From Candidatus Zixiibacteriota bacterium (GTDB taxonomy: Bacteria; Zixibacteria; MSB-5A5; GN15; FEB-12): DNA of 64,000 nucleotides. The stretch is from positions 1 to 64,000 of the forward strand of contig JBGSIV010000299.1 in the NCBI GenBank assembly GCA_041742355.1. Reading direction: 5' to 3'. Positions 36,284 through 52,763 of this stretch are shown piece after piece (position 1 is the first letter of the stretch; each line of letters starts with the position of its first letter). A model generated the notes under the pieces. It had not been told where the DNA came from and ran no database searches. It worked only from the letters and a program-made list of their open reading frames with translations. A program made the translations under genes and the position numbers.

Positions 36284-38279
36284 AACCGGCCTCCGCCAGG
36301 CGAGCCATCTCCCCGCGCGTTCTGGCAATGTAATTGCTGATCTCGGGGTTGCCGGGGACCATTCGAAGGGCCTTCTCCCACACCGCAATGGCCTCGGGGA
36401 GGCGATTCTTCCCGTAGTAGTCAATGCCGGACAGCTTGTAGGCCTGGAGCAGGTAGTCCCGGACCGAACGATAGTCCGGCGCCAGCCGATGGGCCAGTTC
36501 CCAGTGTGAGATCGCTCCGCTCAGGTCACCCTGGGCGAAGGCCTGCTGCCCGGCCAGGTAGGATGCCTCGGCCTCTTTCCGTATGGTGGCGCTGAGTTTC
36601 GTTGGAGCAGTTGTTTCTTTCACCGGCGCGACCGCCGCAACGTCGCCGTTCACCTTCTTCATATTCTCCCGGAAGATCGCCGGCCAGCCATGATCCGGGA
36701 ACGACAGACTGACGGAGTCGGCGAACTGCGCAGCGAGAGCATAATTGCCGTCGCCCGCGGCCCTCTCAGCCTCGGCTCTCCAGGCTTCGAATCGCAGCCG
36801 GCTCCCGGCCCCGGAGATGCCCGGATACCGCGATGCGTAGGGCGCGATCGTGCGGTGCAGCGCCCCCGCCTCTTCGATCTTGCCCAGACTGACGAGGGAA
36901 TCAAGCGTGAAGAGCGCATTCGAAACCATGCGTTCCTGTGCGGCGGCATCCTCCAGGGCCTGATCGGTGCGCGCTATCAGATCCAGTGCAGCAGGGGAAG
37001 AGGCGTCCAGCGCCAGGGCCATTCCGGCATAGTGTCGTGCACCCAGGAGATCTCCCTGCCGGAATTTCGCTGTGGCCGAATCGACGAGCTGCCCGAGCTG
37101 ACGGTCGCGGTCTCTCCTCTCCCGCAGATTGTGTGCCTCCGTCGCCAGCGCGGCAACTGCGGCCGTATCACCACCGGACACTCGAGTCAGGAACAGGGCC
37201 CGGTCAAGACTAATCGATGCGTCTGTCAGGGCGCCGGACGCCAGTGCCGCCTGTCCGGCAGCAATCAGGTCGTGAATCATCGCCTCCTGCTGGCCCTTGA
37301 CTCGAGAAGCCATAATCCGGTTGAATTCCTGCTCGCGGCGCTGATCCCGGGCCATCCGGCGATCGTCGGCGGACGAGCCGATAAGCGTCGTGATCGAGAA
37401 CATGTGGACGCTTCCCAGATCCCGGTCGACCAGCGCGTAATCGAACGTCAGGGGACCGGCACGGAAGCCCGCTCCGCACGACAGCTTCCCGGACTCCCAT
37501 CCGCCGCGGAGCGTCAGCATATCCTGGAAGCCGTACTCTGCTCCCACCGAGGTCTGAACATCCGCCCCATCGCTCGCGCCCGCGCTCATGAGAATGCCGG
37601 CACTGTGGTCGCCGTGGTTGGGAGCAAGCTCTATTCGGGTACCGAAGTCGACGCGGAAAGGCAGCTTAACCGCGTCGTCCAGGAGCGTCAGCCGCGGACT
37701 CACCACGTTCCGCAGCACGACGGTCACATCCACCGATGGTGACCATGCAAACGGCGGCGTGATCGTTCGGCCGAACGCGACACTGATCCCGGGGGATGAT
37801 GTCGCCGACCGGTCGGCCAGCGCATGGTGTTCGAAGTGGGTCGCCACACCGAGCCGATAGCTCCCCAGCATCCGGCCGTACGCAGCGTACAGCGCAAGCC
37901 GCTGCTCCGAAATGTACCCGAGCATCAAATTGCGGTCGTCACGTTTCTCGATACCGTCGACTCCAAGGCGGAAGACGCCTAGGCCGAAGGTTCCCATATC
38001 AAGGGTCGGCCAAGCTGCCCCGGCGTACTGGTAGGCGACGTCAGAGTCGAACAGACGGCTGTAGAACCCGGCGGCGGTCAGGTACTGTGCGGAGGCAAGG
38101 TTCGACGGATTCCAATAGGGCGCCGTGGCCGCGTCGGACACGACGACACCGGCGCCGCCGAGAGACAACTCCCGTGCCCCTGCGCCGAGGCTGAACGGGG
38201 AATCACTGCCTCCGTCGTCGGCGCACACGGTCCCGGCCAGCAGGCCGAGCAGCCCGATGAGAAGCCCTGCCATCTTCAT
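36273..38279 (-). CDS. PorV/PorQ-like outer-membrane barrel fused to a C-terminal helical/TPR region
   Basis: Signal peptide; GAGARELSLGGA...YWNPSNL; AEYGF...LRGGW...DYA; TPR-like C-terminus (AIAVWEKALRMVPGN). ATG overlaps the upstream stop. Confidence 0.8.
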   Translation of the reverse strand: MKMAGLLIGLLGLLAGTVCADDGGSDSPFSLGAGARELSLGGAGVVVSDAATAPYWNPSNLASAQYLTAAGFYSRLFDSDVAYQYAGAAWPTLDMGTFGLGVFRLGVDGIEKRDDRNLMLGYISEQRLALYAAYGRMLGSYRLGVATHFEHHALADRSATSSPGISVAFGRTITPPFAWSPSVDVTVVLRNVVSPRLTLLDDAVKLPFRVDFGTRIELAPNHGDHSAGILMSAGASDGADVQTSVGAEYGFQDMLTLRGGWESGKLSCGAGFRAGPLTFDYALVDRDLGSVHMFSITTLIGSSADDRRMARDQRREQEFNRIMASRVKGQQEAMIHDLIAAGQAALASGALTDASISLDRALFLTRVSGGDTAAVAALATEAHNLRERRDRDRQLGQLVDSATAKFRQGDLLGARHYAGMALALDASSPAALDLIARTDQALEDAAAQERMVSNALFTLDSLVSLGKIEEAGALHRTIAPYASRYPGISGAGSRLRFEAWRAEAERAAGDGNYALAAQFADSVSLSFPDHGWPAIFRENMKKVNGDVAAVAPVKETTAPTKLSATIRKEAEASYLAGQQAFAQGDLSGAISHWELAHRLAPDYRSVRDYLLQAYKLSGIDYYGKNRLPEAIAVWEKALRMVPGNPEISNYIARTRGEMARLAEAGYGD

Positions 38280-41200
38280 CGAATCACCGCCACTTTCCGC
38301 TGCAACGACTCTTCCCCTCCCGACAGGTATCGTATCGTCAGCCGGCACAGGTAGGTCCCGGGCAGCACCTCGCGCCCCTTCTGGTTTTCGCCGTACCATT
38401 TGTCGGCCTGATGCTGCCCCGTCTCGCGATATTCATCCACCGCGAGGTCGGTGACCAGATCGCCCGTGATGGTATACAGAGAGATCGACACATGAGCCGG
38501 TTCGGCCAGCATGTAGGTAATTGTTGTCCCGTTGCCGTCAGCAGCGTTGAACGGATTGGGGTAATTTGTAAACGACGCTGCAATGGTCGCCGCCGTGACC
38601 GACAATTCGGTCCCGCGAAGTGGATAGGTCCCCTCTGCAACGAGTGGAAGTACCGCAGTGTGCAGCAGCGGATCCTGAAGCGTCAACGAGAGCGAATCCA
38701 TAAACGCAAACGAGTAATTCGCCGGTGTGGCGGTCGACTTGATATCGCCGGTCAGCCTGAGTTGGTGACTTGCTCCGGCTGTGAGTACGACCGGCTCGGC
38801 CAGGGCGAAGGTCAGCGGCTGATCGGCCGCCACGGGGAATGTCGCTACCGGGGACTCATCGAGCCACACGCTCACACTGGACACCAGATCCGTCAAATCC
38901 GTTGGGATGAACCCGGCCGCTGTGCGCGTGAACACCTGACCGCTCAGCCCCTGCAACTCGACATCCCCCTGCTGCCCCAGCAGGCTGTAGTCGACATTCA
39001 GTTCCATCAGCGGAACTCCGAATTGTCCCTGATGGACTATGATTACCGAATGGTCCTCGGCCGAAAGCGATGGACGCCCCGCCGGCTGAATGATCGCCGC
39101 CGGACCGATTGCCATGGGGAAACTGAGATCACAGGCCGGGTTGGCCACCACGCGGAGGTCGTGCGCTGGATCGGCGAGATCGCTCAATACGAGGCGGTCG
39201 GACGACTCCACGACGAGCACAAGGCTGTCATGGGGTGCCAGCGCTTCGATGTCGGCCACCAGGCGGACCCTGATCGAATCCTCGGCGCTCAACTGCAGGC
39301 CCGTTTCGCCGAAGCGGAAGTACACGGCGCCGTTGACCAGTTCGACGTACGGCTGGTACCGGGCGGGCTCCCCCTCCACCGAGACGCCTATGCGATCTAA
39401 AAACTTCTGCGGGTCGAGCGGCACACCATCGGTATTGAGCAAATTGGTTTTCACCCCGTCGACCTGAGCCGGCGAGCAATCCTCGCAGGGCGGATAGACG
39501 ATGCTGAACTCTACCAGCTGAACTTCCTCCGAGCCGGCCACAATTGATCCCGGCATCATCGCGGTAACGCAAACTGAGGGTGGCAGGGCGGGTTCGTTGA
39601 TATCCACCCACCCGCCTGCTAATGGAAAAGCCGACGCTGTGCTGAGCACGGTGGTATCGGTGACCGCCAGAATGGTTGCGCCCGAGCCTATTTCCCGAAC
39701 CGACAGGTACGAGCTGTCGGCGATGACCAGCCGGAACCCGCTGTTTAGGGCCGATGAACCAACATCACCGATAAGTTGCAGTGTGCGCGCTTCGCCTGGC
39801 CCGAGTGTGAGCGGTGAGCCCAGGTCGATCTGCACGGGAGTGGTGCTCAGGCCAGCGCCTGACACCGTTCCGTATTCGGTCCCGGCCGACCGCACTGCCA
39901 GGAGGCGGAGCACGGTGGAAGCATCGATAGGATTGCTGTCGCTGTCGACAAAAGCGGCGCGGAGCGATGTGATCTGTATGGGCGACGCACCGACCTCGCC
40001 GGGATGCCGAACTGTAATGTCCATGCATACCACGCCGGTTTGCCCCTGGTTGGCCTGGCGGTCGGTCTGTACCGGACCGGCCACAGCGAGGCTGCCCGCG
40101 GGCAGATCCACCCGGCAAATCGCGGTGCTCAGCGGGAAAGTTTCGGCTGATTGCACGGTTGCCGGTGATCCCGCGTTCGCGTCGTGCACGACGAAAGCCT
40201 CGGGTCCATCGATCGACAGAACAAACGTGGAGGCTTCACAGGCAGAGTCAACATCCACCAGCAGTGCCAGCCGGGCGTCAGCGCCCGGAGTGATGATCAC
40301 CGGCGACGGGAAGGTGAGAGTAACCTGGCTGTCAGCCGGGACCGGGAGCGCCATCGCGTAGTTGGAGAATCCGACTCCCAGCGCCATGAGCGAAAACACC
40401 TGATTTGCGGGTCGGCCTGTCCCGGATGCGTCTCTCACCGTTATGCGCACAGCATCCAATTGCAGCGGAGAGACCGATGCCCCGGTGTCCGGATGAGAAA
40501 CGGTAATCGTGAGGGGAAAGACATTTCGCTGGCCCTGTGTTACCGAGGCCGGGGCGGAGTTCAGCAGACTGACGACTGCAGTCTCGGCCCGCTCCAGGAT
40601 GATCGCCGTCGAGGACACGATGTATGCCGATGAATCGGAGACGGCCGGCGCCACCGCTCGCATTCGCCAGGAAACCTGTCCGGTCTGGAGGGAGGTGAAA
40701 TAGCACCTGAGTTCTCCTGTAGCTCCCGGGCTCAACGTCAAGGTACCGCTGCAGCTGTCCAGTCGGACCGCGGCGATAGTTCCCTCCGGAATCACTTCGG
40801 CCGCGAGGCCGGGCACAGTCACGCCGTAGAGGTTCTGCACATTCAAGCGGACTGCAATCGTCTCTCCAACCGAGTACGTCGAACGAATTTGACCGCAGGA
40901 CACCTGAAGCTGCGATGCGTATACGGTCAACGACGCACCTGAGGCCAGCACGGAGTCTCGGGGGCCGTCGTTGTTCGAGGCGTAGGTGCAGCCATTGAGG
41001 GGAATCCAGGTCTGAATAACGGTCCCCGAAGCGGCATCGGCGGCGATATCGGCGGTAATGATGAGGTAGGGGGGAGATTCCAATATCGGTAAGCCAAGGT
41101 AGGCACTCGTCCACAGGCCGGCGGCATAGAAGCATGGGCCGAGCAGGGAGTCTGTTCCCTGCCAGATCGCGTCGCCGTTACGATCAAGCCAGATCTTCAC

Positions 41201-44200
41201 AGATAGCAGGTCTGTCGGTGCACAACTTACCCCGAGCGCGACAGTCTGTAGTGTATCGATCAGATCACCGTTATGAGCCGGACGGAGCGAGACGAGCACC
41301 TGCGACGTATCGCCGGCGCGGACTGTCCGCGAGGCCATCGCGAGAACTTCGTACTGCGACGCCACGGAACCATCGACCACTAATGTCCGGCCGGTCTGGA
41401 CGGGAAGATCGCCGTTGAGGGCGACGGGCGTGGCAAAGGAGAAGTCGGCGGCATCGAAAGCCGCGACGATAAGCGTGTCGGAGTCGGCTGCATCGTCCGC
41501 AATTTCCGCCGTCACGAACAGGTACGAGAGCGATTCGGCCGGCAGCGCTGCCGTAAACCCATCCAGTTGAAGCGTGTCATCGGAGAAACTCCGCGCCGCC
41601 GCGAGCGAGTTCTCGTCGAGGCTGAAGGAACTGGATCGGCCATAGTACAAGCGCACGAGGCCGAGCAGGCGGTCCCGATAATCATCGTCTCCACCCGACA
41701 CGCTCCGGTTGTGGAGACGCAGCCCGCTCAGTTCTTTCTGAACCGTATATCCGTTGTAGAGCGCAAAGGCCAGTATCCGGGTGTTGTTGGCGCCGGGCGC
41801 CACCGCGCCGCTGATGTCACCGAGAGTAACAATGGTAACGCGATCGGGCGGAAGAAGCAGCACGGGATCGTCTGCGCTGACGGCCGCGTCATCGGGGCCA
41901 TTCAGGCCCGACCGATAGGTTACTCCGCCTATTGGAACTGACAGAAAGAGTGTCCCGGCCCGGAAAGATTCCGGAGTGATGCTGGCAGTCACAATGAACT
42001 CGACGCCGCCTGCGAATACCCCTGTTCGCAGGTTGCCGGCCGACCAGTCGGTGCCATTCCATGTCAGTTCGGCACACACTATGTCGTCCGTAGTAAGTCC
42101 GTTGCCCGTCACATCATGCCACAATCGGAGCGTGCTTACCGCGCTTCCGTCACTCAACGACCCCAGATTCATTAACCGGATCGACTGTAGTGTGTCGGCG
42201 GCATACCCATTGCCCGGGAGGCGGAAGCGGAACACGGGGCTGTTGGTCCGCCCTCCGGTAAGGTTCAGGTCGTCAACAGAGGAGACTCCCACCGCCGAAG
42301 CGGGGAAGCCGCTGATTGTAGCGAAGGAGGGATTCACCGCCGGAAATGTCCCCGTTACCTGAATCGGTTCATGGCAGTAGACATGATTTTGTTGGTCGAT
42401 GCCGAACCGAACCTGTGTGCCGGCCCGCGCGAGATTTCTGGACACGGCTGCCAGAACGGTCAATTGGATGTGGCTGTTGCTCCATGGCAGTAGCAGGCCA
42501 GGCGTTCCCACGACCGCCGTCCCGGCCTCCACAGTTGCGACAGCGATCAACGTGTCGGCGGCGCCGATCACCATTGGATTGCCATCGAGGTCGTGATACA
42601 CCATGAGGCTGTCGAACTGCCCATCGAGTTCATCCTGGGTTGCTCCGAGCGGATCCACGGCATAGGAAGTCAGCACGAGGCTGTCGATTTCGGCCGGAGC
42701 ACCACTGTGGTTGACCAATTGCAGTGACAGAAGAGGCGGCGAGACAGCTCCCCAGACTATAGAGGACCCGGGGATCGGCTGCACGGATACCAACATCTCG
42801 CGCTCGCTGAGAATCGTGAGACCGCCTTCGGCGGCAACTTCGTGGTCGAGCGGGCCATCATTACCCGAGGAGACCCCGATGCCGTACTGGGGAATGCCCA
42901 GTTCAAGCGTTGCCCCCCGGGTAGCAAAGCGTGACGCTGTGGCGATTACGAACAGCCTGGTCATCCCGGTGTTCAACGGAACCCGGAGGGCACTGCGACT
43001 CCACCACGCCCCGTGGTTTACAAGAGCCGCGACCCGGTGGTCGCTGCTTCCTCCATCCCAGGTGCCGTCCCCCTCATCAAGGTAGACTGTCAGCGAATCA
43101 AGATCCGCTGCTCCGGCAGTACCGGTATTGGCTACCGCGAGCATGGTGAGGGTGTCGGGGAGGTAGCCATTGCAGGGGATATCAATGGTGAGAATTCGTA
43201 CCGGGCCGTCGGCCCACTCAAGGGTGTCCTGATCGGCGCCGGTGAGAGCAAGCTGCGCGGCAACCATACCATCGATAATACACACACCGTGCGAGTTTAC
43301 CGTATCCGGCCCGTCGGCCGGCGTGGCATCCAGCAGCTGCAGGTCGGCTGAGGGGAGCAGACTGAAGTCGAGTGAATCGCCGTCGTGCGGATGCGTGGCT
43401 ATGTCGGCCACTACCAGCAAAATGGCCCGTTCGCCCGGCGCCAGCGCAAGGGAGCAGGCGCTGATGTGTCGATTGTCGGTTCCCGCAAACGGTGTCGCCA
43501 GCAGCGTATCCCACAGTGACAATTCGAGGTCGAGGTCGCGGTCAAGGTAGATTGCCACCGAATCGAGATTGCTTCCCACCTGTTCCGCTGTCCCGTTCCC
43601 GCGTGACACGTTCCTGACCGCCAGCGAACTAATGGTCTTGGGTTCCTGGAAGTAGTTGCCAACCTCGATCGCGAGGAGCGTCTGATCCTGCTCGCCGGGA
43701 TACACCGAGGTTGTCCCCAGGGCAATCTGATCAATCAGCACTGACTGGATCACAATCAGGCCGGTGGTATCGACGGCGCCGCTGCCGTCAGTGGCGACCG
43801 CAATTCGGCCCATGCCGGGAACATCAGCGGACAGCTCGCCCCGCTCATCAAGGGTGCCGATCATTCCCAGAAGCGACCAGGCAATCTCGCCGGCGTCAGC
43901 GAGGTTCGAATCCGCATCGTAGGCCGTCACGGAGAAACCAATCGTATCATGCAAGACACCGGTAAAACTCTCCGGCGAAATTCGAATTCGGGCAGGCAGT
44001 CCGGGTACCAACGTCAGGATCCCGGAAGTGTCGGCAGTGATCAGATCGAAGCTCGCAGCGATTCTCCCTGTACCAGGTCTCCTGAAATCCAGGGTAACCG
44101 ACGCGCTGACGGCGCCCGGCGATTGCGCTATGGAGTCCTCGCCGATAATCGTCCAGAGAACGGCAACGTCTCCTAGAGACACGCTGTCGCTGCTATACCC

Positions 44201-45535
44201 CCGGCAGTACACTTCTATCTCCTCATCGGTGGAGAGAGCGGTGTCGCCGACAGCTGTCCCGTCGGCCAACTCCACGCGAATGAAACTCAGGAGCGCGGCA
44301 TCCAGCACCGTGATCTGCACGGTTTCCGAGTCAGCCAGAATTCCGTCGGATGCAACAAATGTGACTTCGATTGAACCTACCTGCGAGGAGTTAGGAACAA
44401 ACCAGAAAGTGCCTTGACCGTCGCCGTGGTCAGTGAACGACGCCCCCGGTGGCAGGGGAGCGGCCGACAGCACGGGGACGGCGCCGTCGGCATCGGATGC
44501 ACTGAGCGTGAACTCCAGTGTATCTCCCGCCGCGATCGATTGGGGCCCGATGTCCTCGAGCACGGGGGAGACGTTGGCCGTATAGACCGTGATCGTTACT
44601 ACTTCGGTGTCGGCAAGCTCACCATCGCTGGCAGTGAAGAAGATTTCGTAAATCCCTGCGGCGTTCTGTGAAGCCGAGAAAACGAAATCTCCTGTGCCGT
44701 CGCCGTTATCCTTGAAGGAGGCGTCCTTGGGCAGCGGAGCAGCTTTCAGCACGGGGATGGTTCCGTCGCCGTCCGACGCTGAAACCGTGAACGTGACTTC
44801 TTCACCTTCGGCGATAGTTGCGGAACTGAGCGGCGCAAGGTTGGGTGGCTCGTTCAGGTGCCTCAAGCTGGCGCCCAACTCCACCCACTCCTTGTTCTCG
44901 GTAAAGGCCCAACCTATGCCGACCGACACCGCGCCACTCTTGACGCACCCTTGTCCCCAGTGCTCGTCCCTGACTTCCAGCGACCAGATCCGGGTCGAGC
45001 CAATACTTGGGTCGGGTTCGCCGTTGGAGAGCGACAGAGACGAGGCAAGCACCATGTTGCCCGGGTTGCTGGGTACAACGATACTTCCTGTGTTACTCTT
45101 GCCTGATTTGGTAATGATTGTGTCTACCGGGTGACTCAAGTCAACTCCGGTGAGGGCGACAGCCGACATCGCTGCCTTGACATTGCCGTCGGAAAGCAGC
45201 ACCAGTTCAGCCTCACCAACCGGGGGATTCACATACTGCCACAGCTCAATGCGCGGTTTGCCGATCGCATGGATGACTTTGCCGACCAGCGTGAGCGGGA
45301 GGCCTCCGTACGTGACCGTCTCGGCCGAGTCGTCCTTGTCGGTGTACTGGACGGTCACCAGGAGAAGCATGTCCGGGTCACGGGTCGTATGCATGAGAAC
45401 CAGCGAATCCGTGTCGTCACTGATCGAAATGGCAGTGTCGACGACTACCGGAACTGCGCTGACGATGCATGGCATAATCACCGCCCAAAGCAGCGCGATC
45501 GCCAGGGTGAATGCGGAATTGAGCCTCAATGACAC
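38276..45535 (-). CDS. Large secreted Ig/cadherin-like repeat surface protein (2419 aa) with T9SS-A/FlgD-like C-terminal domain
   Basis: Signal peptide; two N.PP.L...ASD.DG...DNGDGTG cadherin-like units; about 160-aa beta-sandwich repeats; C-terminal NYPNPFN...YTITGDLV...WYGEN...PGTYL...KVAVIR. Confidence 0.85.
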   Translation of the reverse strand: MSLRLNSAFTLAIALLWAVIMPCIVSAVPVVVDTAISISDDTDSLVLMHTTRDPDMLLLVTVQYTDKDDSAETVTYGGLPLTLVGKVIHAIGKPRIELWQYVNPPVGEAELVLLSDGNVKAAMSAVALTGVDLSHPVDTIITKSGKSNTGSIVVPSNPGNMVLASSLSLSNGEPDPSIGSTRIWSLEVRDEHWGQGCVKSGAVSVGIGWAFTENKEWVELGASLRHLNEPPNLAPLSSATIAEGEEVTFTVSASDGDGTIPVLKAAPLPKDASFKDNGDGTGDFVFSASQNAAGIYEIFFTASDGELADTEVVTITVYTANVSPVLEDIGPQSIAAGDTLEFTLSASDADGAVPVLSAAPLPPGASFTDHGDGQGTFWFVPNSSQVGSIEVTFVASDGILADSETVQITVLDAALLSFIRVELADGTAVGDTALSTDEEIEVYCRGYSSDSVSLGDVAVLWTIIGEDSIAQSPGAVSASVTLDFRRPGTGRIAASFDLITADTSGILTLVPGLPARIRISPESFTGVLHDTIGFSVTAYDADSNLADAGEIAWSLLGMIGTLDERGELSADVPGMGRIAVATDGSGAVDTTGLIVIQSVLIDQIALGTTSVYPGEQDQTLLAIEVGNYFQEPKTISSLAVRNVSRGNGTAEQVGSNLDSVAIYLDRDLDLELSLWDTLLATPFAGTDNRHISACSLALAPGERAILLVVADIATHPHDGDSLDFSLLPSADLQLLDATPADGPDTVNSHGVCIIDGMVAAQLALTGADQDTLEWADGPVRILTIDIPCNGYLPDTLTMLAVANTGTAGAADLDSLTVYLDEGDGTWDGGSSDHRVAALVNHGAWWSRSALRVPLNTGMTRLFVIATASRFATRGATLELGIPQYGIGVSSGNDGPLDHEVAAEGGLTILSEREMLVSVQPIPGSSIVWGAVSPPLLSLQLVNHSGAPAEIDSLVLTSYAVDPLGATQDELDGQFDSLMVYHDLDGNPMVIGAADTLIAVATVEAGTAVVGTPGLLLPWSNSHIQLTVLAAVSRNLARAGTQVRFGIDQQNHVYCHEPIQVTGTFPAVNPSFATISGFPASAVGVSSVDDLNLTGGRTNSPVFRFRLPGNGYAADTLQSIRLMNLGSLSDGSAVSTLRLWHDVTGNGLTTDDIVCAELTWNGTDWSAGNLRTGVFAGGVEFIVTASITPESFRAGTLFLSVPIGGVTYRSGLNGPDDAAVSADDPVLLLPPDRVTIVTLGDISGAVAPGANNTRILAFALYNGYTVQKELSGLRLHNRSVSGGDDDYRDRLLGLVRLYYGRSSSFSLDENSLAAARSFSDDTLQLDGFTAALPAESLSYLFVTAEIADDAADSDTLIVAAFDAADFSFATPVALNGDLPVQTGRTLVVDGSVASQYEVLAMASRTVRAGDTSQVLVSLRPAHNGDLIDTLQTVALGVSCAPTDLLSVKIWLDRNGDAIWQGTDSLLGPCFYAAGLWTSAYLGLPILESPPYLIITADIAADAASGTVIQTWIPLNGCTYASNNDGPRDSVLASGASLTVYASQLQVSCGQIRSTYSVGETIAVRLNVQNLYGVTVPGLAAEVIPEGTIAAVRLDSCSGTLTLSPGATGELRCYFTSLQTGQVSWRMRAVAPAVSDSSAYIVSSTAIILERAETAVVSLLNSAPASVTQGQRNVFPLTITVSHPDTGASVSPLQLDAVRITVRDASGTGRPANQVFSLMALGVGFSNYAMALPVPADSQVTLTFPSPVIITPGADARLALLVDVDSACEASTFVLSIDGPEAFVVHDANAGSPATVQSAETFPLSTAICRVDLPAGSLAVAGPVQTDRQANQGQTGVVCMDITVRHPGEVGASPIQITSLRAAFVDSDSNPIDASTVLRLLAVRSAGTEYGTVSGAGLSTTPVQIDLGSPLTLGPGEARTLQLIGDVGSSALNSGFRLVIADSSYLSVREIGSGATILAVTDTTVLSTASAFPLAGGWVDINEPALPPSVCVTAMMPGSIVAGSEEVQLVEFSIVYPPCEDCSPAQVDGVKTNLLNTDGVPLDPQKFLDRIGVSVEGEPARYQPYVELVNGAVYFRFGETGLQLSAEDSIRVRLVADIEALAPHDSLVLVVESSDRLVLSDLADPAHDLRVVANPACDLSFPMAIGPAAIIQPAGRPSLSAEDHSVIIVHQGQFGVPLMELNVDYSLLGQQGDVELQGLSGQVFTRTAAGFIPTDLTDLVSSVSVWLDESPVATFPVAADQPLTFALAEPVVLTAGASHQLRLTGDIKSTATPANYSFAFMDSLSLTLQDPLLHTAVLPLVAEGTYPLRGTELSVTAATIAASFTNYPNPFNAADGNGTTITYMLAEPAHVSISLYTITGDLVTDLAVDEYRETGQHQADKWYGENQKGREVLPGTYLCRLTIRYLSGGEESLQRKVAVIR

Positions 45536-46202: not shown

Positions 46203-47030
46203 ATGGCTATCGACAGACTCGGCTACGAATACCTCCTCGGCGACAGCGACCGGGAAATCGACCGGCTCCGCTTCCAGCACTCGGTCTGGGGGCCGGTGAC
46301 CCATCGCTTCTTTGACCGCCTCGGCGTGCAGCCCGGATGGCGGTGTCTCGATGTCGGCGCAGGGCCGGGGTTTGTCTCGATGGATCTGCGCGACCGGGTC
46401 GGCAACTTTGGCGAGGTGACCGCCCTCGAGCCCTCGGAGACGTTCCGAGCGTGGTTAACCGATGAAGTCAGGCGTCGCGGCTGGATCAACCTGCACATCG
46501 TCACCGGCACGTCCTACGAGGTCGACCTGCCACATGAGTACTATGACTTGATCTTTGTCCGCTGGGTGATCGGTTTCGTCCCCCATCCCGAGCCGTTTCT
46601 CAAACCACTGCTGGCCGCCCTCAAGCCCGGCGGTATCGTTGCGTTGCAGGATTATGTCCATGAGGGATGCTCCCTTTTCCCCGAGGGTGGGGCTTGGGAC
46701 AGTTTTCCTGAGATGATGCGCCGGTGGTGGCGCTCCGGAGGGGGCGATCCATTTGTGGCGGCGCGTTTGCCCGGCGTCATGCGCCACCTCGGCCTGACGG
46801 TGATCGATTACACCCCGACCTCGCTGACCGGCGGACCGGGCAGCCGCGTGATGGAGTGGATGGAGCGCTTCCTCGTCAGCCAGCTCCCGGTCATGGTGCA
46901 GCGCGGTATCGCCACGCAGGAGGATGCCGATGCGATTCTTGCCGACTGGCAGGAGCACCAGGCGAACGCCGAAACCGTGTTTTTCTCACCCTTCGTGGTG
47001 GACATCGCAGGGCAGAAGCCGCGCGCCTGA
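46203..47030 (+). CDS. Class I SAM-dependent methyltransferase
   Basis: CLDVGAGPG, YDLIFVRWV, LKPGG. Confidence 0.9.
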   Translation: MAIDRLGYEYLLGDSDREIDRLRFQHSVWGPVTHRFFDRLGVQPGWRCLDVGAGPGFVSMDLRDRVGNFGEVTALEPSETFRAWLTDEVRRRGWINLHIVTGTSYEVDLPHEYYDLIFVRWVIGFVPHPEPFLKPLLAALKPGGIVALQDYVHEGCSLFPEGGAWDSFPEMMRRWWRSGGGDPFVAARLPGVMRHLGLTVIDYTPTSLTGGPGSRVMEWMERFLVSQLPVMVQRGIATQEDADAILADWQEHQANAETVFFSPFVVDIAGQKPRA

Positions 47031-47144
47031 GGCCGGCAAACGGCCCGGGAACACGCCTTCCCGAGACGGGTCTTCTCCCAGCGAATCATGAGAGCGGGGG
47101 GCCTGCCATCGTCCGCTTTCGTGTTCGCCACCCCAAAAGAATCA

Positions 47145-47172
47145 TTGACTATATTGGGCCATATAGTATCTT
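47145..47172 (+). promoter_or_regulatory. sigma70-like promoter containing a palindromic operator
   Basis: TTGACT-N16-TATCTT, overlapped by ACTATAT-N6-ATATAGT (47148-47167). Confidence 0.5.
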
Positions 47173-47260
47173 ATTGCCGTGCGAACGCGAGCTGCCCGGC
47201 CACCCGGCAATCGCCCTGAGTTGGACCTGTTATCTCAAACAACCTTACGCGGAGTGCAGT

Positions 47261-49585
47261 ATGCGCTACCTCACTATCGTTCTGGCCCTTGTGTGCCTGT
47301 TCGTCGTGATGTCGTCCGTCTCGGCCGGCACCGTCAAGGACTCTATTGCCTACCAGGGTCGGCTAACCGACGCCTCCGACAACCCGGTCCCCGATGGTCT
47401 GCGGGATCTTGTCCTGACTTTCTGGTCCGATTCGGTCGGCGGTACCCTGCTCTACACCGAAGTCCGAGCGGTGAGCGTCAAGAACGGCCTTTACTCCGCC
47501 TGCATCGGCTGCGACAACGATTCGTTTTTCGATATCTTCACCGACTCCTCGATTTACCTTGAAGTGCAGTTGACCGGCGAGCCGCCCATGACCCCGCGCA
47601 CGCCCATCCGCTACGCGCCCAAGGCGATGATGAGCGCCCGGGTGCGCGGCGACATCTCCACCTCGCCCGACCACCTCACGATCGGTGATCTTGACGGTGA
47701 CGGCGCGTTGGATCTCGTTTCGTCCGCGGATCAGTCCGAGCTCCGGGTAATCAAGAAGCGACCCGGCCGGACCACCTTTTCCAATATAACCCTGCGCGCC
47801 TACCCCGATTCCGTCAGTGACTCACGCGACTGCGATGACGATGACGACGGCGACCCCGAAAGCGCATACGTACAGCGTCTGACGCCGACTACCGCGAGTC
47901 TGGCCATCAAGACCAAGGGGACCAGCGCCCAGCGCCTCGGTATGGGGGGCGACTGCGACGACACCGACGCCTCTGTATATGTCGACGGGGACGACGACGG
48001 CGACGGCATCCCGGAGCGTGACGCCGAACTACGGATCACCCCGACCACGGCCAGCCTTGCGATCAATTCGAAGGGGACCAGCGCCAAACGCCTCCGGGCG
48101 GGCGGTGACTGCGATGACACGGACGCTTCCTTCTACCTTGACTATGACGATGACGGTGATGGCGTATCCGAAACCAGCATGACCTCCACTGTCGAGCGCA
48201 AGTCCGGGTCGATCATTTACCTCGACCGCGAGGGAAACGAGGTGCTGCGCAGCATGATGGGGGTCGATAGCACCCGCTCGATCGTGACGCTCGATCGGGA
48301 TTCCGACGGCGACGGCGTACCGGAAGAGGAAGTAACCGCAAAGATCACCCCGGGCGTCGCCGCCCATGCCATAAACACCAAGGGGACGGGCGCGCAGGGG
48401 GGACGCTCGGTCTTGATCAGCTCCACTACCGACCAGTTTAGCGCTGTCCATTCTTGCGACATCGATGACGATGGCGACGGGCTGTCCGACGCTGATATCT
48501 CCTCGACCGTGACGCCGACCAGTTCCAGCTTCGCCGTCAATTACAATGGAACGGGGGGCTCAGGCAACCGTTCGGCCGGCACTACCGCAGACGATTCCAC
48601 CGTTATCGACTACCTCGACATGGACGATGACGGTGACGGCATTGCCCAGGCGAAGGCAGTGAGCTCCGTGTCCTCCCTGTCCGGCAGCGGCGGCGGTGCG
48701 GCTGCAGCCTCTTATGCCGCGACCGGACGCTGGTATACCGACAGCGACGATGATGGTGTCCCGGAAGGGGACATCGAATCAATCGCCACCCCGCTGACGT
48801 GCAGCGTTGCGATCAAGACCAAAGGGACCGGCGCCGATCCCAATCGGACATCCATTACCCAGTCGACCGATACCAGCCATGTCGGGCTGGCGCTGTCCGG
48901 AATCAGCACCGGCGGCGGTTACAAGCTGTTCTCGGTCACCGGCCAGCCGACTCCCGTGGGCGGGCAGGTGAAGTCCCGGATGGAGGTCGGAGACCTGGGC
49001 AATCCGGCAGATGTTTCCATCGAACATACATGCGATACGTCGGGGGCTGTGATACTCCTCGCGGGGAAGAAGGGCTACGATTACTACCAGTCTTCCAACT
49101 CTCTTGGCGCACGGATGACTATCCGCACCGATGCCGCCGACACGACCATCGATATTGATGGAGACGGCCGGATTGGCATCGGCAAACCGGCCGATGCCGT
49201 CAAGAGAATCGATGTTGATGGCGGAGCATACTGCGACGGCTCAAACTGGGTGAATGCATCCGACGCCAACTCCAAGGAGAACTTCGCACCGGTCGACGGC
49301 CAGGAACTGCTGGAGAAGATCGGCGATCTGGAAATCACGAAGTGGAACTACAAAGGTGATCCGGAAACCGAGCACATCGGGCCGACCGCCCAGGACTTCA
49401 AGGAAACTTTTGGTGTCGGGGCCGACGACCGGTCGATTTCGACCATTGACCCTTCCGGGATTGCCCTCGCCGCGATAAAGGAGCTTTCGAAGCAGAATCA
49501 GGATCTTCGCAGTCAGAACGCCGACCTGCAGAAGCAGCTGGACGAGCTCAAGCGCATGGTCGAGCAACTGGCCGCAAAGAAATAG
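47261..49585 (+). CDS. Secreted fibre-like protein with acidic repeats and C-terminal peptidase S74 (intramolecular chaperone) domain
   Basis: Signal peptide MRYLTIVLAL...VSA; IAYQGRLTD...NGLYS...PRTPI N-domain; GRIGIG...WVNASDANSKEN...WNYK...HIGPTAQDF...AAIKEL, then coiled coil. Confidence 0.85.
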   Translation: MRYLTIVLALVCLFVVMSSVSAGTVKDSIAYQGRLTDASDNPVPDGLRDLVLTFWSDSVGGTLLYTEVRAVSVKNGLYSACIGCDNDSFFDIFTDSSIYLEVQLTGEPPMTPRTPIRYAPKAMMSARVRGDISTSPDHLTIGDLDGDGALDLVSSADQSELRVIKKRPGRTTFSNITLRAYPDSVSDSRDCDDDDDGDPESAYVQRLTPTTASLAIKTKGTSAQRLGMGGDCDDTDASVYVDGDDDGDGIPERDAELRITPTTASLAINSKGTSAKRLRAGGDCDDTDASFYLDYDDDGDGVSETSMTSTVERKSGSIIYLDREGNEVLRSMMGVDSTRSIVTLDRDSDGDGVPEEEVTAKITPGVAAHAINTKGTGAQGGRSVLISSTTDQFSAVHSCDIDDDGDGLSDADISSTVTPTSSSFAVNYNGTGGSGNRSAGTTADDSTVIDYLDMDDDGDGIAQAKAVSSVSSLSGSGGGAAAASYAATGRWYTDSDDDGVPEGDIESIATPLTCSVAIKTKGTGADPNRTSITQSTDTSHVGLALSGISTGGGYKLFSVTGQPTPVGGQVKSRMEVGDLGNPADVSIEHTCDTSGAVILLAGKKGYDYYQSSNSLGARMTIRTDAADTTIDIDGDGRIGIGKPADAVKRIDVDGGAYCDGSNWVNASDANSKENFAPVDGQELLEKIGDLEITKWNYKGDPETEHIGPTAQDFKETFGVGADDRSISTIDPSGIALAAIKELSKQNQDLRSQNADLQKQLDELKRMVEQLAAKK
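47828..48850 (+). repeat. Intragenic tandem repeats of about 52 aa (D-x-D-D-D-G-D-G-x-P-E...TPT...AIxTKGT)
   Basis: Acidic boxes start at 47828, 47984, 48140, 48293, 48458, 48617 and about 48740; the first three are spaced exactly 156 bp. Confidence 0.85.
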
Positions 49586-49598
49586 TCTGACCAAAACG

Positions 49599-49629
49599 AA
49601 AACGGGCAGGCGCGACGCCTGCCCGTTTT
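49599..49629. terminator. Bidirectional terminator between convergent genes
   Basis: AAAACGGGCAGGCG-cga-CGCCTGCCCGTTTT. Confidence 0.85.
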
Positions 49630-49659
49630 GCTGTCTAAGTACATAGCTCGACGGCAGCC

Positions 49660-52332
49660 CTACCGCTCCTTCAATTCCTCCAGCCAATTCTGCACAACCA
49701 CGAACTCGGCCGTTCCGCTCCGGCTCTCAGTCGTGATAATCAGGAATTCCAGACCATCCTTGCTGACCTGGTAAGAGGCGTGTGAAGCGCTGGCCTCGAA
49801 GTAATACGGCCGGTTGAACAGGATCTTCGGCTGGCCGAAACTCAGCCCACCTTCCAGATTGACCGGCACCGCCAGAAAATCGCTCTCGTAATTGACGAAG
49901 AACAGCTCCTTGCCGTCGGCCCGCCACTGGGGCATACGTCCCCGGTTGGATGACACCTGCCACTTTCCTCCGGTCGGACTCAGTTCCCGCACGTAAATCT
50001 CGGGACGACCTGATTCGTTGCAGGTGTAGGCGAGGTACCGGCCGTTGGGCGAGAGCGTCGCCCAGCGTTCAAAGAATTGCGAGGTCAGCAGAGGTTCGAT
50101 CGCGCCACTTTCAAGATCGACCCGGTGGATATCGGCCCCTCCTGTGGCGCTCATAACGATCATCGTTTTGCCGTCGGTCGATAATGACTGCGTCAGTACT
50201 CCCATCGAGTCGTTCACCGTAATCCGCTGATCATCGCCGATGCCGTTGGCCTGACGCCGGTACAGATCCCAGCCGTTGCTGTTAGTGCCTCCCCTGCGGT
50301 TCGACGTGAAGTAGATGCTGGCTCCGTCCGGGTTCCACACCGGCCAGGCATCGATTCCCGGATCAAATGTGAGCCGCGACGAGACATCCCGCTCCAAGTC
50401 GCGCACCCATATATCCGCTGTCGTCAGGTTTTCCCCCGTGACGTCATAGGCGAGTCGCTTGCCGTCGGGGGAGAGGGCGATGTTCTCGTACCGCTCGGGG
50501 GCACCGATACGCCGGAGTTCCTTGCCGTCGCGGTCGCACACGACAATCTCCCTCGCCGACTCCGCGGTTCCGCGCAGATACACGAGCTGGCCCCCGTCCG
50601 AGACGCTGAACAACGCGCGCTCGCTCGCTGAAGTTACGTCGTTGGCCACCGGGATCGGATCCCCGGTGAATTCGAGCTTATCGGCGTCAAACGGATGCGC
50701 CACGAGGATCTTGTCCTTGCGGTAGAGGATGTGCCCGCTTGGATGGTACACGGCCCGCGAATCGGAAATCCCCAGCTTCTTCGTCTCCTCCGACTCGATG
50801 TTGCCGACCATCAGGAGCGTCTCGTCGCCAGCACTAACTGAATCGGAAAACGAAAGGAAGAGAAAATGCTTTCCATCGGGCATGAATGAGGGCCACGAGT
50901 GGCCCGTTTCGCCGCCCGCCCGATTGATGACTGTGGCAAATGTCACCGGCCCGCCTGCCGCCGGTACCTGGCAGATGGAGTCGGCAAAAGCTCCGTCAAA
51001 CAGGATGATCCCGCTGCTTCCCCAGGTACCGTCGGCGCCGCGCTGAGCCTCGCAGATGAACTGCGTCGGCCCGCCGCCCACCGGGATCCGCTTGAGCTGA
51101 TTCCTATTATCGAAGAAGGCAAGATACTTGCTGTCGGGCGACCAGAACGGTCGTCGGGATTCTTCCGTTCCCACCAGCGGATACGGATCGAGCGAATTGA
51201 TCGGCCGCACCCAGATCATAAATGTGCCCGCGGTGTCGCGCGCCTGAAATGCCAGCGTTTTGCCGTCGGGCGAGATCAGCGGCCAAGTTACCGAGGCGAA
51301 ACGCGCGTCCTGTCCGATCGCAAACCGGGCCACCGGTTTTTCGGGCGCCGGCTGCATAAACAGCATCCACGCCATCGCGGCGGTGGCCACCGCCAGAACG
51401 CCCGCCGCGGCCCACAACACCCGCTCGCGCGCCTTGCGACGCACCGACACCTGCAAGGGGACGCCTACCTGCGACCCTCCCTCGTTTATCCACAACAGCG
51501 CCCGCTTCAGGTCGCCGGCCGTGTGCCAGCGGTGTTCCGGGTCCTTCTCGAGGCATTGACGAATGACCCGTTCGAGCATGGGGGGAGACAGCGGCTGGGT
51601 GTCAATAATCGGCCGTGGCTGTTCCTTGATAATCGATGCAATCAGGCTGGCCTGGCTGTTCCCCTCGAATGCCCGCCGTCCGGTGATCATCTCATAGAGA
51701 ATCGCCCCGAAGGCAAAGATGTCGCTGCGGGCGTCGGCCTCTTTCCCTTCGAGCTGCTCCGGGGCCATGTACTGCAGTGTCCCGATAATCGCCCCCTCGC
51801 CGGTCAGGGGCGTGGTCCGGGTGATCCCGCTGACACCCTGCACTACGCCCGCCACCTCCTGCAGTTTGGCGAGACCGAAATCGAGCAGCTTGGCCCCTCC
51901 CTTGGTCAGCATAATATTCCCCGGCTTGAGATCCCGATGGACCAGTCCCTGACGGTGCGCCTTATCCAGCGCCTCCGCAATCTGCATGGCAATCGCCAGC
52001 AGTTCTGGCACCGGGAGCGGCCCCTTGAGCAGTCGGTTCGCGAGCGACTCCCCTTCGAGGTACTCCATCACGAGGTAGTCGACGCCCTCGTGGTGGCCAA
52101 TGTCGTGGAGTGTGCAGATATTGGGGTGGTTCAGGCTCGAGATCGCTTTTGCCTCCCGCTCGAACCGGAGCTTCATGTCCGGATCGCTGGCAACCTGTGC
52201 CGGGAGGATCTTGATTGCGACGGTGCGATCCAGCCGCACATCCTTTGCCTTGTACACCTCGCCCATGCCTCCCGCGCCGGCCGGGGATTCGATACGATAG
52301 GGACCTAACTGCGTTCCACTGGGAAGAGCCAC
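49660..52332 (-). CDS. Hanks-type Ser/Thr kinase with TM helix and TolB-like (PD40) beta-propellers
   Basis: [29 protein letters not shown]; repeated WSPD/SPDG units. GTG start at 52332 with AGGAG RBS. Confidence 0.93.
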
Positions 52333-52763
52333 GTTTATTCTCCTAAAATGTGGTTGGGCCGTTCGAATCGGCCACCGGGGGCGCACTGCGCGTCTGTGTA
52401 AGATCGACAAATTTGATCCAATTAGCAAGGAAAACCCTCCGGTTGAGGGTTTGGTCCCGGCAACCACAATGTAACATCATGCTGGTTTCGCTGATCTGCT
52501 GCCAGGCTGGCCCTGCTGTTCATTTTTGGCGCAGAATTGGCCAGATCCTGACAAATCATAGACACCGTCATCGACAACAGGCCCGGCCCCCTGCAGGTAC
52601 TCCCCGCCGTAATCCGATAGTATCCCTACCGATTCTGTAATCAGGTCGTGATGAAAAAGGGGACCCAGACCAGGCCGCCGCGGCAGTCCTTCCGCGACAG
52701 GCCGGGTGATAATGACAGGCTGATTCATAACCACTACCTATAACCAGGACCAGGGGATACGTT

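Follow-up and report, generated by a model that had tools for sequence, protein, structure and literature searches.

Mosaic adhesive trimers (MATs) of the S74 type in Bdellovibrio are described, in the part of PMC10769870 drawn on here, as trimers with a signal peptide, a beta-rich domain of about 130 aa after it and a Peptidase S74 chaperone with a catalytic Ser-Asp and Lys motif. In a Candidatus Zixiibacteriota genome (GCA_041742355.1, G000; 93.8% complete), the first 64,000 nucleotides of contig JBGSIV010000299.1, here called the window, contain a gene for a 774-aa fibre protein of a similar layout (Table 1). With the S74 MATs, as far as that source describes them, it shares a chromosomal location, a predicted signal peptide, a conserved beta-rich N-domain (about 105 aa in the fibre), a predicted trimer and the S74 motif (S667, D668 and K672; 43.7 bits at a PF13884 cut-off of 22), as well as paralogue families with a variable middle and tip. 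By analogy of layout, the fibre likely works like an S74 MAT and is likely a member of this group. The mosaicism of the MATs is described there as a swapping of whole adhesive tip domains, whereas here it is a shaft with pieces of unrelated proteins, of 8–25 aa, that recur exactly in other scaffolds and phyla. The scaffold is thus of a known kind, but it does not explain this vocabulary of short peptides, hereafter called words. What the locus adds is a shuffling test, a selection test and a myxobacterial donor.

Other described systems resemble parts of the protein. A C-terminal chaperone and a predicted trimer are also features of phage S74 tail fibres and tailspikes (PF13884; phrog_1980, E 4e-10). 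Unlike these, the fibre has a signal peptide, no phage neighbours and a central region without a match in 50,697 phage records; a prophage tail fibre was rejected because of the signal peptide, the lack of phage neighbours and the position of the homologues amid housekeeping genes (by eye). With the T4 gp19-like tube (PF06841), two motif segments are shared, of only 16 and 21 aa and 130 residues apart, and a whole gp19 tube protein was rejected since the PF06841 cut-off was not reached and only fragments are present. The variant type III secretion system T3SS* of Myxococcus is, in the part of PMC12075869 used, needed for prey lysis and lacks a needle; the myxobacterial donor operons described below resemble type III operons and may or may not be the mxan_2434–2464 cluster of that paper. 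The reuse of sub-domain segments between unrelated proteins is known as bridging themes or fragment shuffling (PMC9387206, PMC10684548). As covered in the portions cited, these concern remote similarity or phage domain-scale shuffling, whereas the present words are near-identical, fixed and concentrated in exported proteins. No description of such a peptide vocabulary was found in the open-access literature, with subscription papers and bioRxiv supplements outside the search.

The reading that we tentatively favour is that the gene encodes an exported, self-cleaving trimeric fibre, in which shuffled repeats carry fixed words shared across phyla, and that this fibre may form a decoy coat against injection machines. 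The words are shared exactly with unrelated scaffolds and are conserved in protein, not in codons. Residues 310–330 and 466–490 are identical to segments of other proteins at 21 of 21 and 25 of 25 positions, which, together with the shuffle controls, bears out the proposal of the initial annotation that the segments are borrowed and not due to chance. A total of 507 exact 8-mers are common to the fibres and 308 non-fibre proteins, as compared to 1–3 in shuffled sequences, the 308 proteins having been gathered with word-bearing queries and being enriched by construction. The edges of the words across scaffolds are sharp, with an identity of 0.94–0.99 in the word and 0.04–0.14 in the flanks; the exception is the left flank of residues 479–490, which is a continuation of the same word. 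For residues 603–610 in non-fibre proteins, the identity is 0.94 in the word and 0.14 and 0.08 in the flanks.

Several segments had been named in the initial annotation as recurring in unrelated proteins. This was confirmed for residues 466–490, 603–610 and 367–382, the last two of which recur in a Sphingomonas-type family of 230 aa, but not for residues 88–93, of which near variants but no exact copies occur in the 308 non-fibre proteins. Macellibacteroides and Parabacteroides are among the names in the P0142 cluster of 313 members. When shorter proteins were searched, 43 matched, nine of them with PF06841, and follow-up searches with two word-bearing proteins gave 250 and 1365 matches; the 150 and 120 listed comprised RHS proteins, Bacteroidota proteins of large size and numerous small proteins that start with a hydrophobic leader. 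Many carriers are short and consist mostly of words, and some have isolate-style names (Sphingomonas immobilis, Macellibacteroides sp. HH-ZS and Pedobacter sp. KR3-3). The C-terminal tail of RHS-repeat proteins is the usual toxin position; in P0240, P0241, P0270, P0290 and P0320 this tail is strung together from vocabulary words, pieces of EF-Tu and cold-shock proteins among them. No carrier was found among phage records and plasmids, and 143 pattern matches in viral contigs yielded no confirmed carrier. The fibre's own genome gave one clear cargo-word match among 72 blocks (four shuffles per block). A large exported-type protein of this genome (C279:3588-6602, minus strand) has a close match to the family word W131 at frame residues ~828–845; this word is absent from the fibre, so that the match is a donor domain or the protein another carrier.

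These results bear on the possibility that the likenesses arose by chance in an acidic repeat of low complexity that drifts, or that they are an assembly artefact. The likenesses to MopE and FG-GAP are indeed weak and overlap the acidic box, and those to cold-shock and HU proteins were not above shuffles with the donors tried. Chance is nevertheless refuted by the identities over 21 and 25 residues and by the shuffle controls, and an artefact is contradicted by the carriers with isolate names and by three contigs of one public run (X1, possibly the gene's own source sample) that span the fibre gene with zero differing letters. We consider the probability of either to be close to nil.

The selection on the words was analyzed at the level of codons. 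A scan of 185,579 genomes for the tube word gave 42 stretches, of which eight were confirmed, five in tube-domain genes and three in fibre genes. The tube-domain genes are titled Verrucomicrobiota, Planctomycetota, Myxococcota (L063, from the unpublished genome G285), Hydrogenedentales and Symbiobacteriaceae. All 19 residues are identical in these five loci of other phyla, whereas only 12, 12, 12, 6 and 10 of the 19 codons are. In colinear DNA blocks of the fibre genes, where the pairs overlap and are not independent and where the mask somewhat favours the words, residue-changing codons amounted to 11.5% of 2542 comparisons in words, 17.6% of 6786 in the rest of the central region, 15.6% in S74 and 20.8% in the N-domain. 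The synonymous divergence was equal across the compared classes (0.41–0.45). Residues that are kept while codons diverge suggest selection on the peptide and not recent copying, and a recent DNA copy from a template was rejected on account of the diverged codons. The displayed, diversifying peptide library that had been envisaged is not what we see: judged from the sequences, the words are a fixed vocabulary conserved across phyla.

Identity over 19–25 residues in unrelated folds and distant phyla, with diverged codons, argues for a conserved binding partner and for a route by which sub-domain pieces are transferred. It is possible, although we would put it with reserve, that bacteria of at least eight phyla share a fixed, selected vocabulary of words of 8–60 aa, taken from the best-conserved stretches of core cell proteins and of injection tubes, pilins and myxobacterial type III needles, and insert these words into exported proteins. 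Such a modular mimicry against predators would have its own way to capture and exchange words, and the fibre would be its trimeric display rack. Alternatively, the words could be tags for one conserved family of receptors or enzymes, in signalling, sorting, processing or predator-kin camouflage, with this reader fixing the vocabulary. The same version of one word is found unchanged in six phyla although its codons have turned over, the donors are functionally mixed and many carriers are small and mostly words, all of which suits such a reader. However, inspection by eye around 15 fibre regions and five tube-word loci showed no reader gene that co-occurs with them, the words have no common sequence pattern and their variants mirror donor subfamilies, and we regard this alternative as somewhat unlikely.

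One- and two-domain gp19 tube proteins with further words were observed in five phyla (L061–L065, P0137–P0141, P0144, P0145, P0153 and P0155), many with hydrophobic leaders (by eye in L063–L065) and apparently outside injection operons. These stand-alone proteins with leaders are possibly exported tube decoys.

The decoy reading depends on the nature of the donors. A gp19 profile was made from 25 ordinary tube genes of the phylum, with 200 shuffles as the control. The two gp19 words were the top segments, with scores of 34.0 and 27.8 as compared to 19.8 for the best shuffle, in agreement with the two gp19-like segments noted initially. Up to 9 of 16 residues of word 1 are identical to ordinary gp19 genes. 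The exact version of the gp19 word is shared with stand-alone tube-domain proteins that also carry other words, and not with the 25 ordinary genes. PF06841 was identified in 26 of 285 Zixibacteria genomes, but neither in the fibre's genome nor as a whole-domain match in the fibre. The sequence similarity strongly suggests that the gp19 injection-tube protein is the donor of the two words.

For residues 466–490, a search with P0156 recovered a leaderless family of 170–187 aa (P0288 is named Archangium gephyra), in which these residues are contiguous with several other family words. A profile of this type III donor matches 124 of 151 sampled Myxococcota genomes (the search centre, G285, counted), the best rows spanning nearly the whole model and the weaker rows part of it only. 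In contrast, no whole gene was matched in Zixibacteria, where the profile picks out pieces within fibre genes only, in 13 of 285 genomes. The donor gene heads an operon in three of four fetched regions, the fourth being a weaker paralogue near type III-like genes. One operon, scanned gene by gene, has SctY/SycD-like, FliA-like, SctI-like, SctJ, SctL, SctN, FliJ-like and SctQ genes. The needle-like first gene of these operons is followed by a TPR chaperone gene; the needle model TIGR02105 matches one of three donor copies, at E 0.002 and below the cut-off, and the gene is thus weakly SctF-like. An SctI-like gene is also present in the myxobacterial operons at E 0.009–0.045. Against a profile of 11 genomic type III donors, residues 466–481 were the top segment, with a score of 32.4 as compared to 31.8 in 200 shuffles. 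The N-terminal words of the donor are identical at 13–15 of 16 positions in other fibres, and each of three N-terminal donor variants has its own closest fibre word. A needle-like type III donor is suggested narrowly for this protein and strongly for its homologues.

Further pieces were found in the family. A DUF1559 pseudopilin piece is present in 22 of 102 fibres (up to 55.7; null 23.0), halves of MopE score above the null in 40 of 102 members, with at least one of the 25 MopE donor rows in the wrong frame, and a kinase catalytic loop piece occurs in fibres. The core of the extracellular contractile injection system (eCIS; PF13699) was identified in three non-fibre carriers, and pieces of EF-Tu, cold-shock and RRM proteins in non-fibre carriers. 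Scans with 16 word segments of homologous loci gave the kinase loop (E 0.001) and a PHROG of unknown function (E 0.011) as the sole matches under E 0.1. The presumed cold-shock and HU origins of two family words matched the expected profile positions, but not above shuffles (11 and 7 donors). Most donors that could be identified belong to contact-dependent machines, and neither of the two traced for the fibre was found intact in the fibre's own genome, which favours the decoy coat.

The fibre family shows shuffling at the level of modules. A search with residues 130–640 identified 127 proteins among 8000 candidates, and the 120 listed were reduced to 102 representatives; homologues are present in 58 of the 285 Zixibacteria genomes, and those with an organism name are mostly labelled as Zixibacteria. 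The order of script-derived, single-copy words was scored as pairs that occur in both orders. This was the case for 51 of 300 pairs in the central region (22 with two or more minority cases), but for only 1 of 201 in the N-domain and 0 of 237 in the C-domain. The homologues are thus not colinear, and neither of the two conditions that the initial annotation had set for its refutation, colinear drift and segment matches no better than shuffles, was borne out. A DNA comparison of seven fibre genes revealed a patchwork of identity between genomes; one gene, for example, resembles a second over residues 1–280 at 90% and a third over residues 1–503 at 87%. One fibre gene has an internal 414-nt duplication at 95%. 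Within fibres, residues 312–330 have one left and one right context, with a flank identity of 0.66–0.73. The words thus travel with their flanks, which suggests that the shuffled unit is the repeat module of about 50 aa and not, as proposed at first, a peptide that swaps freely in a constant scaffold. The ends of the exchanged blocks fall mostly in constant boxes (judged by eye), which fits ordinary homologous recombination, and this suffices for the shuffling of modules.

By eye, the 15 fibre regions contain 1–4 tandem paralogues with different shafts amid housekeeping genes, with no recurrent enzyme gene or conserved neighbour gene. Three pairs of neighbouring paralogues (L071, L072 and L074) have unlike shafts but an S74 region of about 290 nt at 89–94%, a sign of gene conversion. 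In one genus (L071–L073 and L076), the fibre clusters adjoin the NADH dehydrogenase operon and vary in gene number (by eye), and here they form a variable island. The loci L067 and L068, titled Ignavibacteria, share codons with G015:C47 and G071:C5, which are placed in Zixibacteria, and the labels disagree. In the fibre's genome, 16 further genes share the N-domain and two share S74, none of which match the word-bearing central region.

An undescribed in-frame process had been suggested as the source of the diversity, but no dedicated machine was found. An active machine that copies peptide cassettes from a template library, in the manner of a diversity-generating retroelement or of gene conversion, would account for in-frame words with sharp edges in many scaffolds, which are hard to obtain by homologous recombination alone, and for repeated capture from donor subfamilies. 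However, the codons are not conserved (6–12 of 19), neither a second copy nor a template array of the words is present in the fibre's genome, and the reverse transcriptase RVT_1 was not found in this genome but was found in one of five carriers. A template and variable repeat pair was not found, the repeats at 47000–49800 being in-frame and 60–80% alike, nor was a second protein-level copy of the central region found in the genome, where no genome-wide search for DNA repeats was made. A diversity-generating retroelement target was rejected for lack of both RVT_1 and a near-identical template repeat, and a dedicated, still active copying machine appears very improbable. No within-population module swap was seen in the run contigs, which lose rare variants.

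The predicted structure is consistent with a trimeric fibre. A single-sequence AlphaFold model had a predicted local distance difference test (pLDDT) value of only 35, and the AlphaFold2 monomer model from a 23-row alignment a pLDDT of 63 and a predicted template modelling score (pTM) of 0.32. The N-domain is modelled at a pLDDT of 75–89 over residues 31–110, residues 130–535 as a long, open antiparallel meander, and residues 536–629 unreliably. Each repeat unit is modelled as four antiparallel strands with one acidic loop and one Lys-Gly loop, gp19 word 1 as strand-loop-strand, gp19 word 2 as a hairpin and residues 473–484 of the type III word as a low-confidence loop. The trimer prediction for residues 450–774 gave a score of 0.82, whereas none of three controls exceeded 0.00; 21 of 30 solved self-pairs and 0 of 23 single chains reached the mark used. 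The trimer model has a pLDDT of 63, and at least 68% of the contacts agree between runs. S74 and the coiled coil hold most of the confident contacts, and likeness to solved S74 trimers may therefore account for the pass. An intertwined trimer is thus predicted, as is the exported trimeric scaffold of the initial annotation. Fold searches with the full model gave generic beta-meander matches only (best Z 10.9 at a root-mean-square deviation of 12.6), the ESM Atlas gave no match to the long word and S74 clusters only, under 0.9, for the whole protein, and sequence searches of the PDB gave nothing useful (no match, a weak Hcp1 at E 0.28 and a coiled coil).

The words could also be mere structural spare parts, ready-folding hairpins obtained by rare short-patch recombination and kept to extend the beta-meander. 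The gp19 words are in register with the strands and turns of the sheet, and words within fibres move together with their flanks. Yet the words are more conserved than the neighbouring strands and S74 and are identical in unrelated folds, and the pseudopilin word comes from what we take to be a helical region of the donor, which makes this explanation improbable. The fibre might also be an adhesin or bait like the Bdellovibrio MAT, its words binding their natural partners (cells, phage, eCIS particles or debris) for attachment or feeding. The layout is that of the S74 MATs, and there are tandem sets of 1–4 paralogues with different shafts, but the protein lacks a lectin-like tip, the words line the shaft and most carriers are not fibres. 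We consider such a role unlikely.

In the decoy reading, the protein would be exported, fold as a trimer guided by S74 and cleave itself, by analogy with the MAT family as described in the cited part of PMC10769870. The shaft would then show each word three times per fibre, as a hairpin or loop of the sheet. The words may have been captured repeatedly from donor genes and later have been passed on, through gene transfer, between genes that bear words, with the constant boxes acting as homology arms for recombination. The words would mimic the surfaces through which the subunits of tubes, needles, pilins and tail fibres make contact, and a few housekeeping words would mimic conserved targets of injected toxins, so that the coat may bind or jam the injection machines of bacterial predators and rivals.

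Several results weigh against this interpretation. Some donors are cytoplasmic housekeeping proteins (EF-Tu, the kinase catalytic loop, RRM and the cold-shock domain), which a decoy against machines does not need. The words are also frozen, although a decoy in an arms race might be expected to follow its varied enemies; gp19 word 2, for one, is identical at no more than 14 of 19 positions to the 25 ordinary tube genes. Housekeeping donors and frozen sequences would argue for either the reader or the bait. The link of residues 466–490 to the type III donor passes the shuffle control narrowly, and the segment is of low complexity. Library scans and genome searches gave no donor for residues 88–93, 215–224, 554–566 and 603–610. 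Much of each word is ordinary sheet strand in the low-scoring monomer model, and none of three other genomes of the same genus matches the fibre.

The named segments were found where they had been placed, and the S74 chaperone and seven acidic boxes are present, but the boxes, with starts at 47831, 47978, 48137, 48293, 48455, 48614 and 48737, are spaced by 41–54 aa and not by 8–20 aa. The repeat units are degenerate tandem copies with a period of ~156 nt and DNA 60–80% alike, and the central region has a net charge of -48. Scans of 19 window segments (10 word-bearing and 9 scaffold) against Pfam, NCBIfam and PHROGs gave only one match better than E 0.05, the FG-GAP segment, and none in NCBIfam. 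The FG-GAP likeness was thus seen but is below the cut-off, and the segment also resembles the acidic box of the scaffold. An FG-GAP repeat protein was rejected, as the whole fibre scores 13.8 bits against that profile at a cut-off of 26.9 and is modelled as an open meander. Of the two MopE likenesses, the first copy is just above the best shuffle (23.5 and 23.0, respectively) and the second below it (19.6); only the first 11 positions of the 30-aa PF11617 motif align, without a Pfam match. One acidic box resembles the TSP3 calcium-binding repeat PF18884 at E 0.056 over 10 aa.

The Lys-Gly motif (residues ~215, 268, 370 and 517) belongs to the constant scaffold, being present in 101 of 102 representatives and in several copies in 89. 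As a word, it occurs 231 times in 91 of 101 representatives and 30 times in 28 of the 308 non-fibre proteins, and a search of 81 Myxococcota genomes for its donor gave none (best E 0.25). Among the 101 other representatives, the word of residues 88–93 lies at relative positions 0.09–0.46 with four left contexts, and residues 554–566 recur once, at a different position (0.20) and with unrelated flanks.

The fibre gene lies next to a methyltransferase gene and a convergent gene for a Ser/Thr kinase with PD40 repeats (49660–52347, minus strand), and similar kinase genes are close to the fibre gene in two other genomes (L080 and L081). A promoter search at the fibre gene gave a single promoter-like site, no better than chance. 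Elsewhere in the window, positions 38276–45535 (minus strand) encode an exported-type protein of 2419 aa, which has cadherin/Ig domains and, at the C-terminus, a weak FlgD-Ig domain.

Table 1. Features of the fibre gene in the window, followed by related genes in other sequences.
Feature	Position	Strand	Remark
Whole gene	47261..49585	+	774-aa open reading frame (P0001); MAT-like S74 fibre with word-bearing repeat shaft
Predicted signal peptide, residues 1–22	47261..47326	+	hydrophobic N-terminus by inspection; model helix 2–21
Beta-rich N-domain, conserved, colinear family-wide	47327..47644	+	present in 98/102 representatives
Short word, residues 88–93, within N-domain	47522..47539	+	exact in 17/101 other representatives
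FG-GAP-like segment, residues 142–153	47684..47719	+	PF13517 E 9e-4, below cut-off
gp19 tube word 1, residues 164–179	47750..47797	+	34.0, shuffle top 19.8
Seven acidic repeat units, ~52 aa each	47831..48760	+	tandem-repeat search and structure model
Lys-Gly scaffold word, first copy	47903..47932	+	others near 48062, 48359, 48809
MopE-like (PF11617) segment, copy 1	47945..47977	+	marginal
MopE-like (PF11617) segment, copy 2	48101-48133	+	marginal
gp19 tube word 2, residues 310–330	48188..48250	+	21/21 identical in P0141
Type III needle-like word, residues 466–490	48656..48730	+	25/25 identical in unrelated P0142
Possible word, residues 554–566	48920..48958	+	exact in 1/101 other representatives
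Word, residues 603–610	49067..49090	+	in 37/308 non-fibre proteins
Peptidase S74 intramolecular chaperone, residues 667–717	49259..49411	+	PF13884 E 3e-11
C-terminal trimeric coiled coil, predicted	49451..49579	+	structure models
Perfect 14-bp hairpin, terminator-like	49599..49629	.	between fibre gene and convergent kinase gene
First gene of myxobacterial type III operon, 170–210 aa	L107:9713-10273	-	weakly SctF-like
First gene of myxobacterial type III operon, 170–210 aa	L105:9812-10438	+	weakly SctF-like
First gene of myxobacterial type III operon, 170–210 aa	L106:9839-10381	+	weakly SctF-like
Further listed genes, myxobacterial type III operons	L105:12117-12674, L106:12066-12602, L107:7469-8047		
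N-domain paralogues in G000 (contigs)	C9, C262, C233, C283, C179, C227, C143, C88, C73, C107, C144, C270, C121, C15, C284, C72		

Through the words, a needle-like gene was detected in operons of what may be the system that is described, in the part of PMC12075869 cited, as needleless. If the words are decoys, they would show which contact surfaces of eCIS tubes and of the predation machine of myxobacteria are vulnerable, and would offer a direct test of the resistance of prey to contact killing. Carriers with isolate names would allow genetics.

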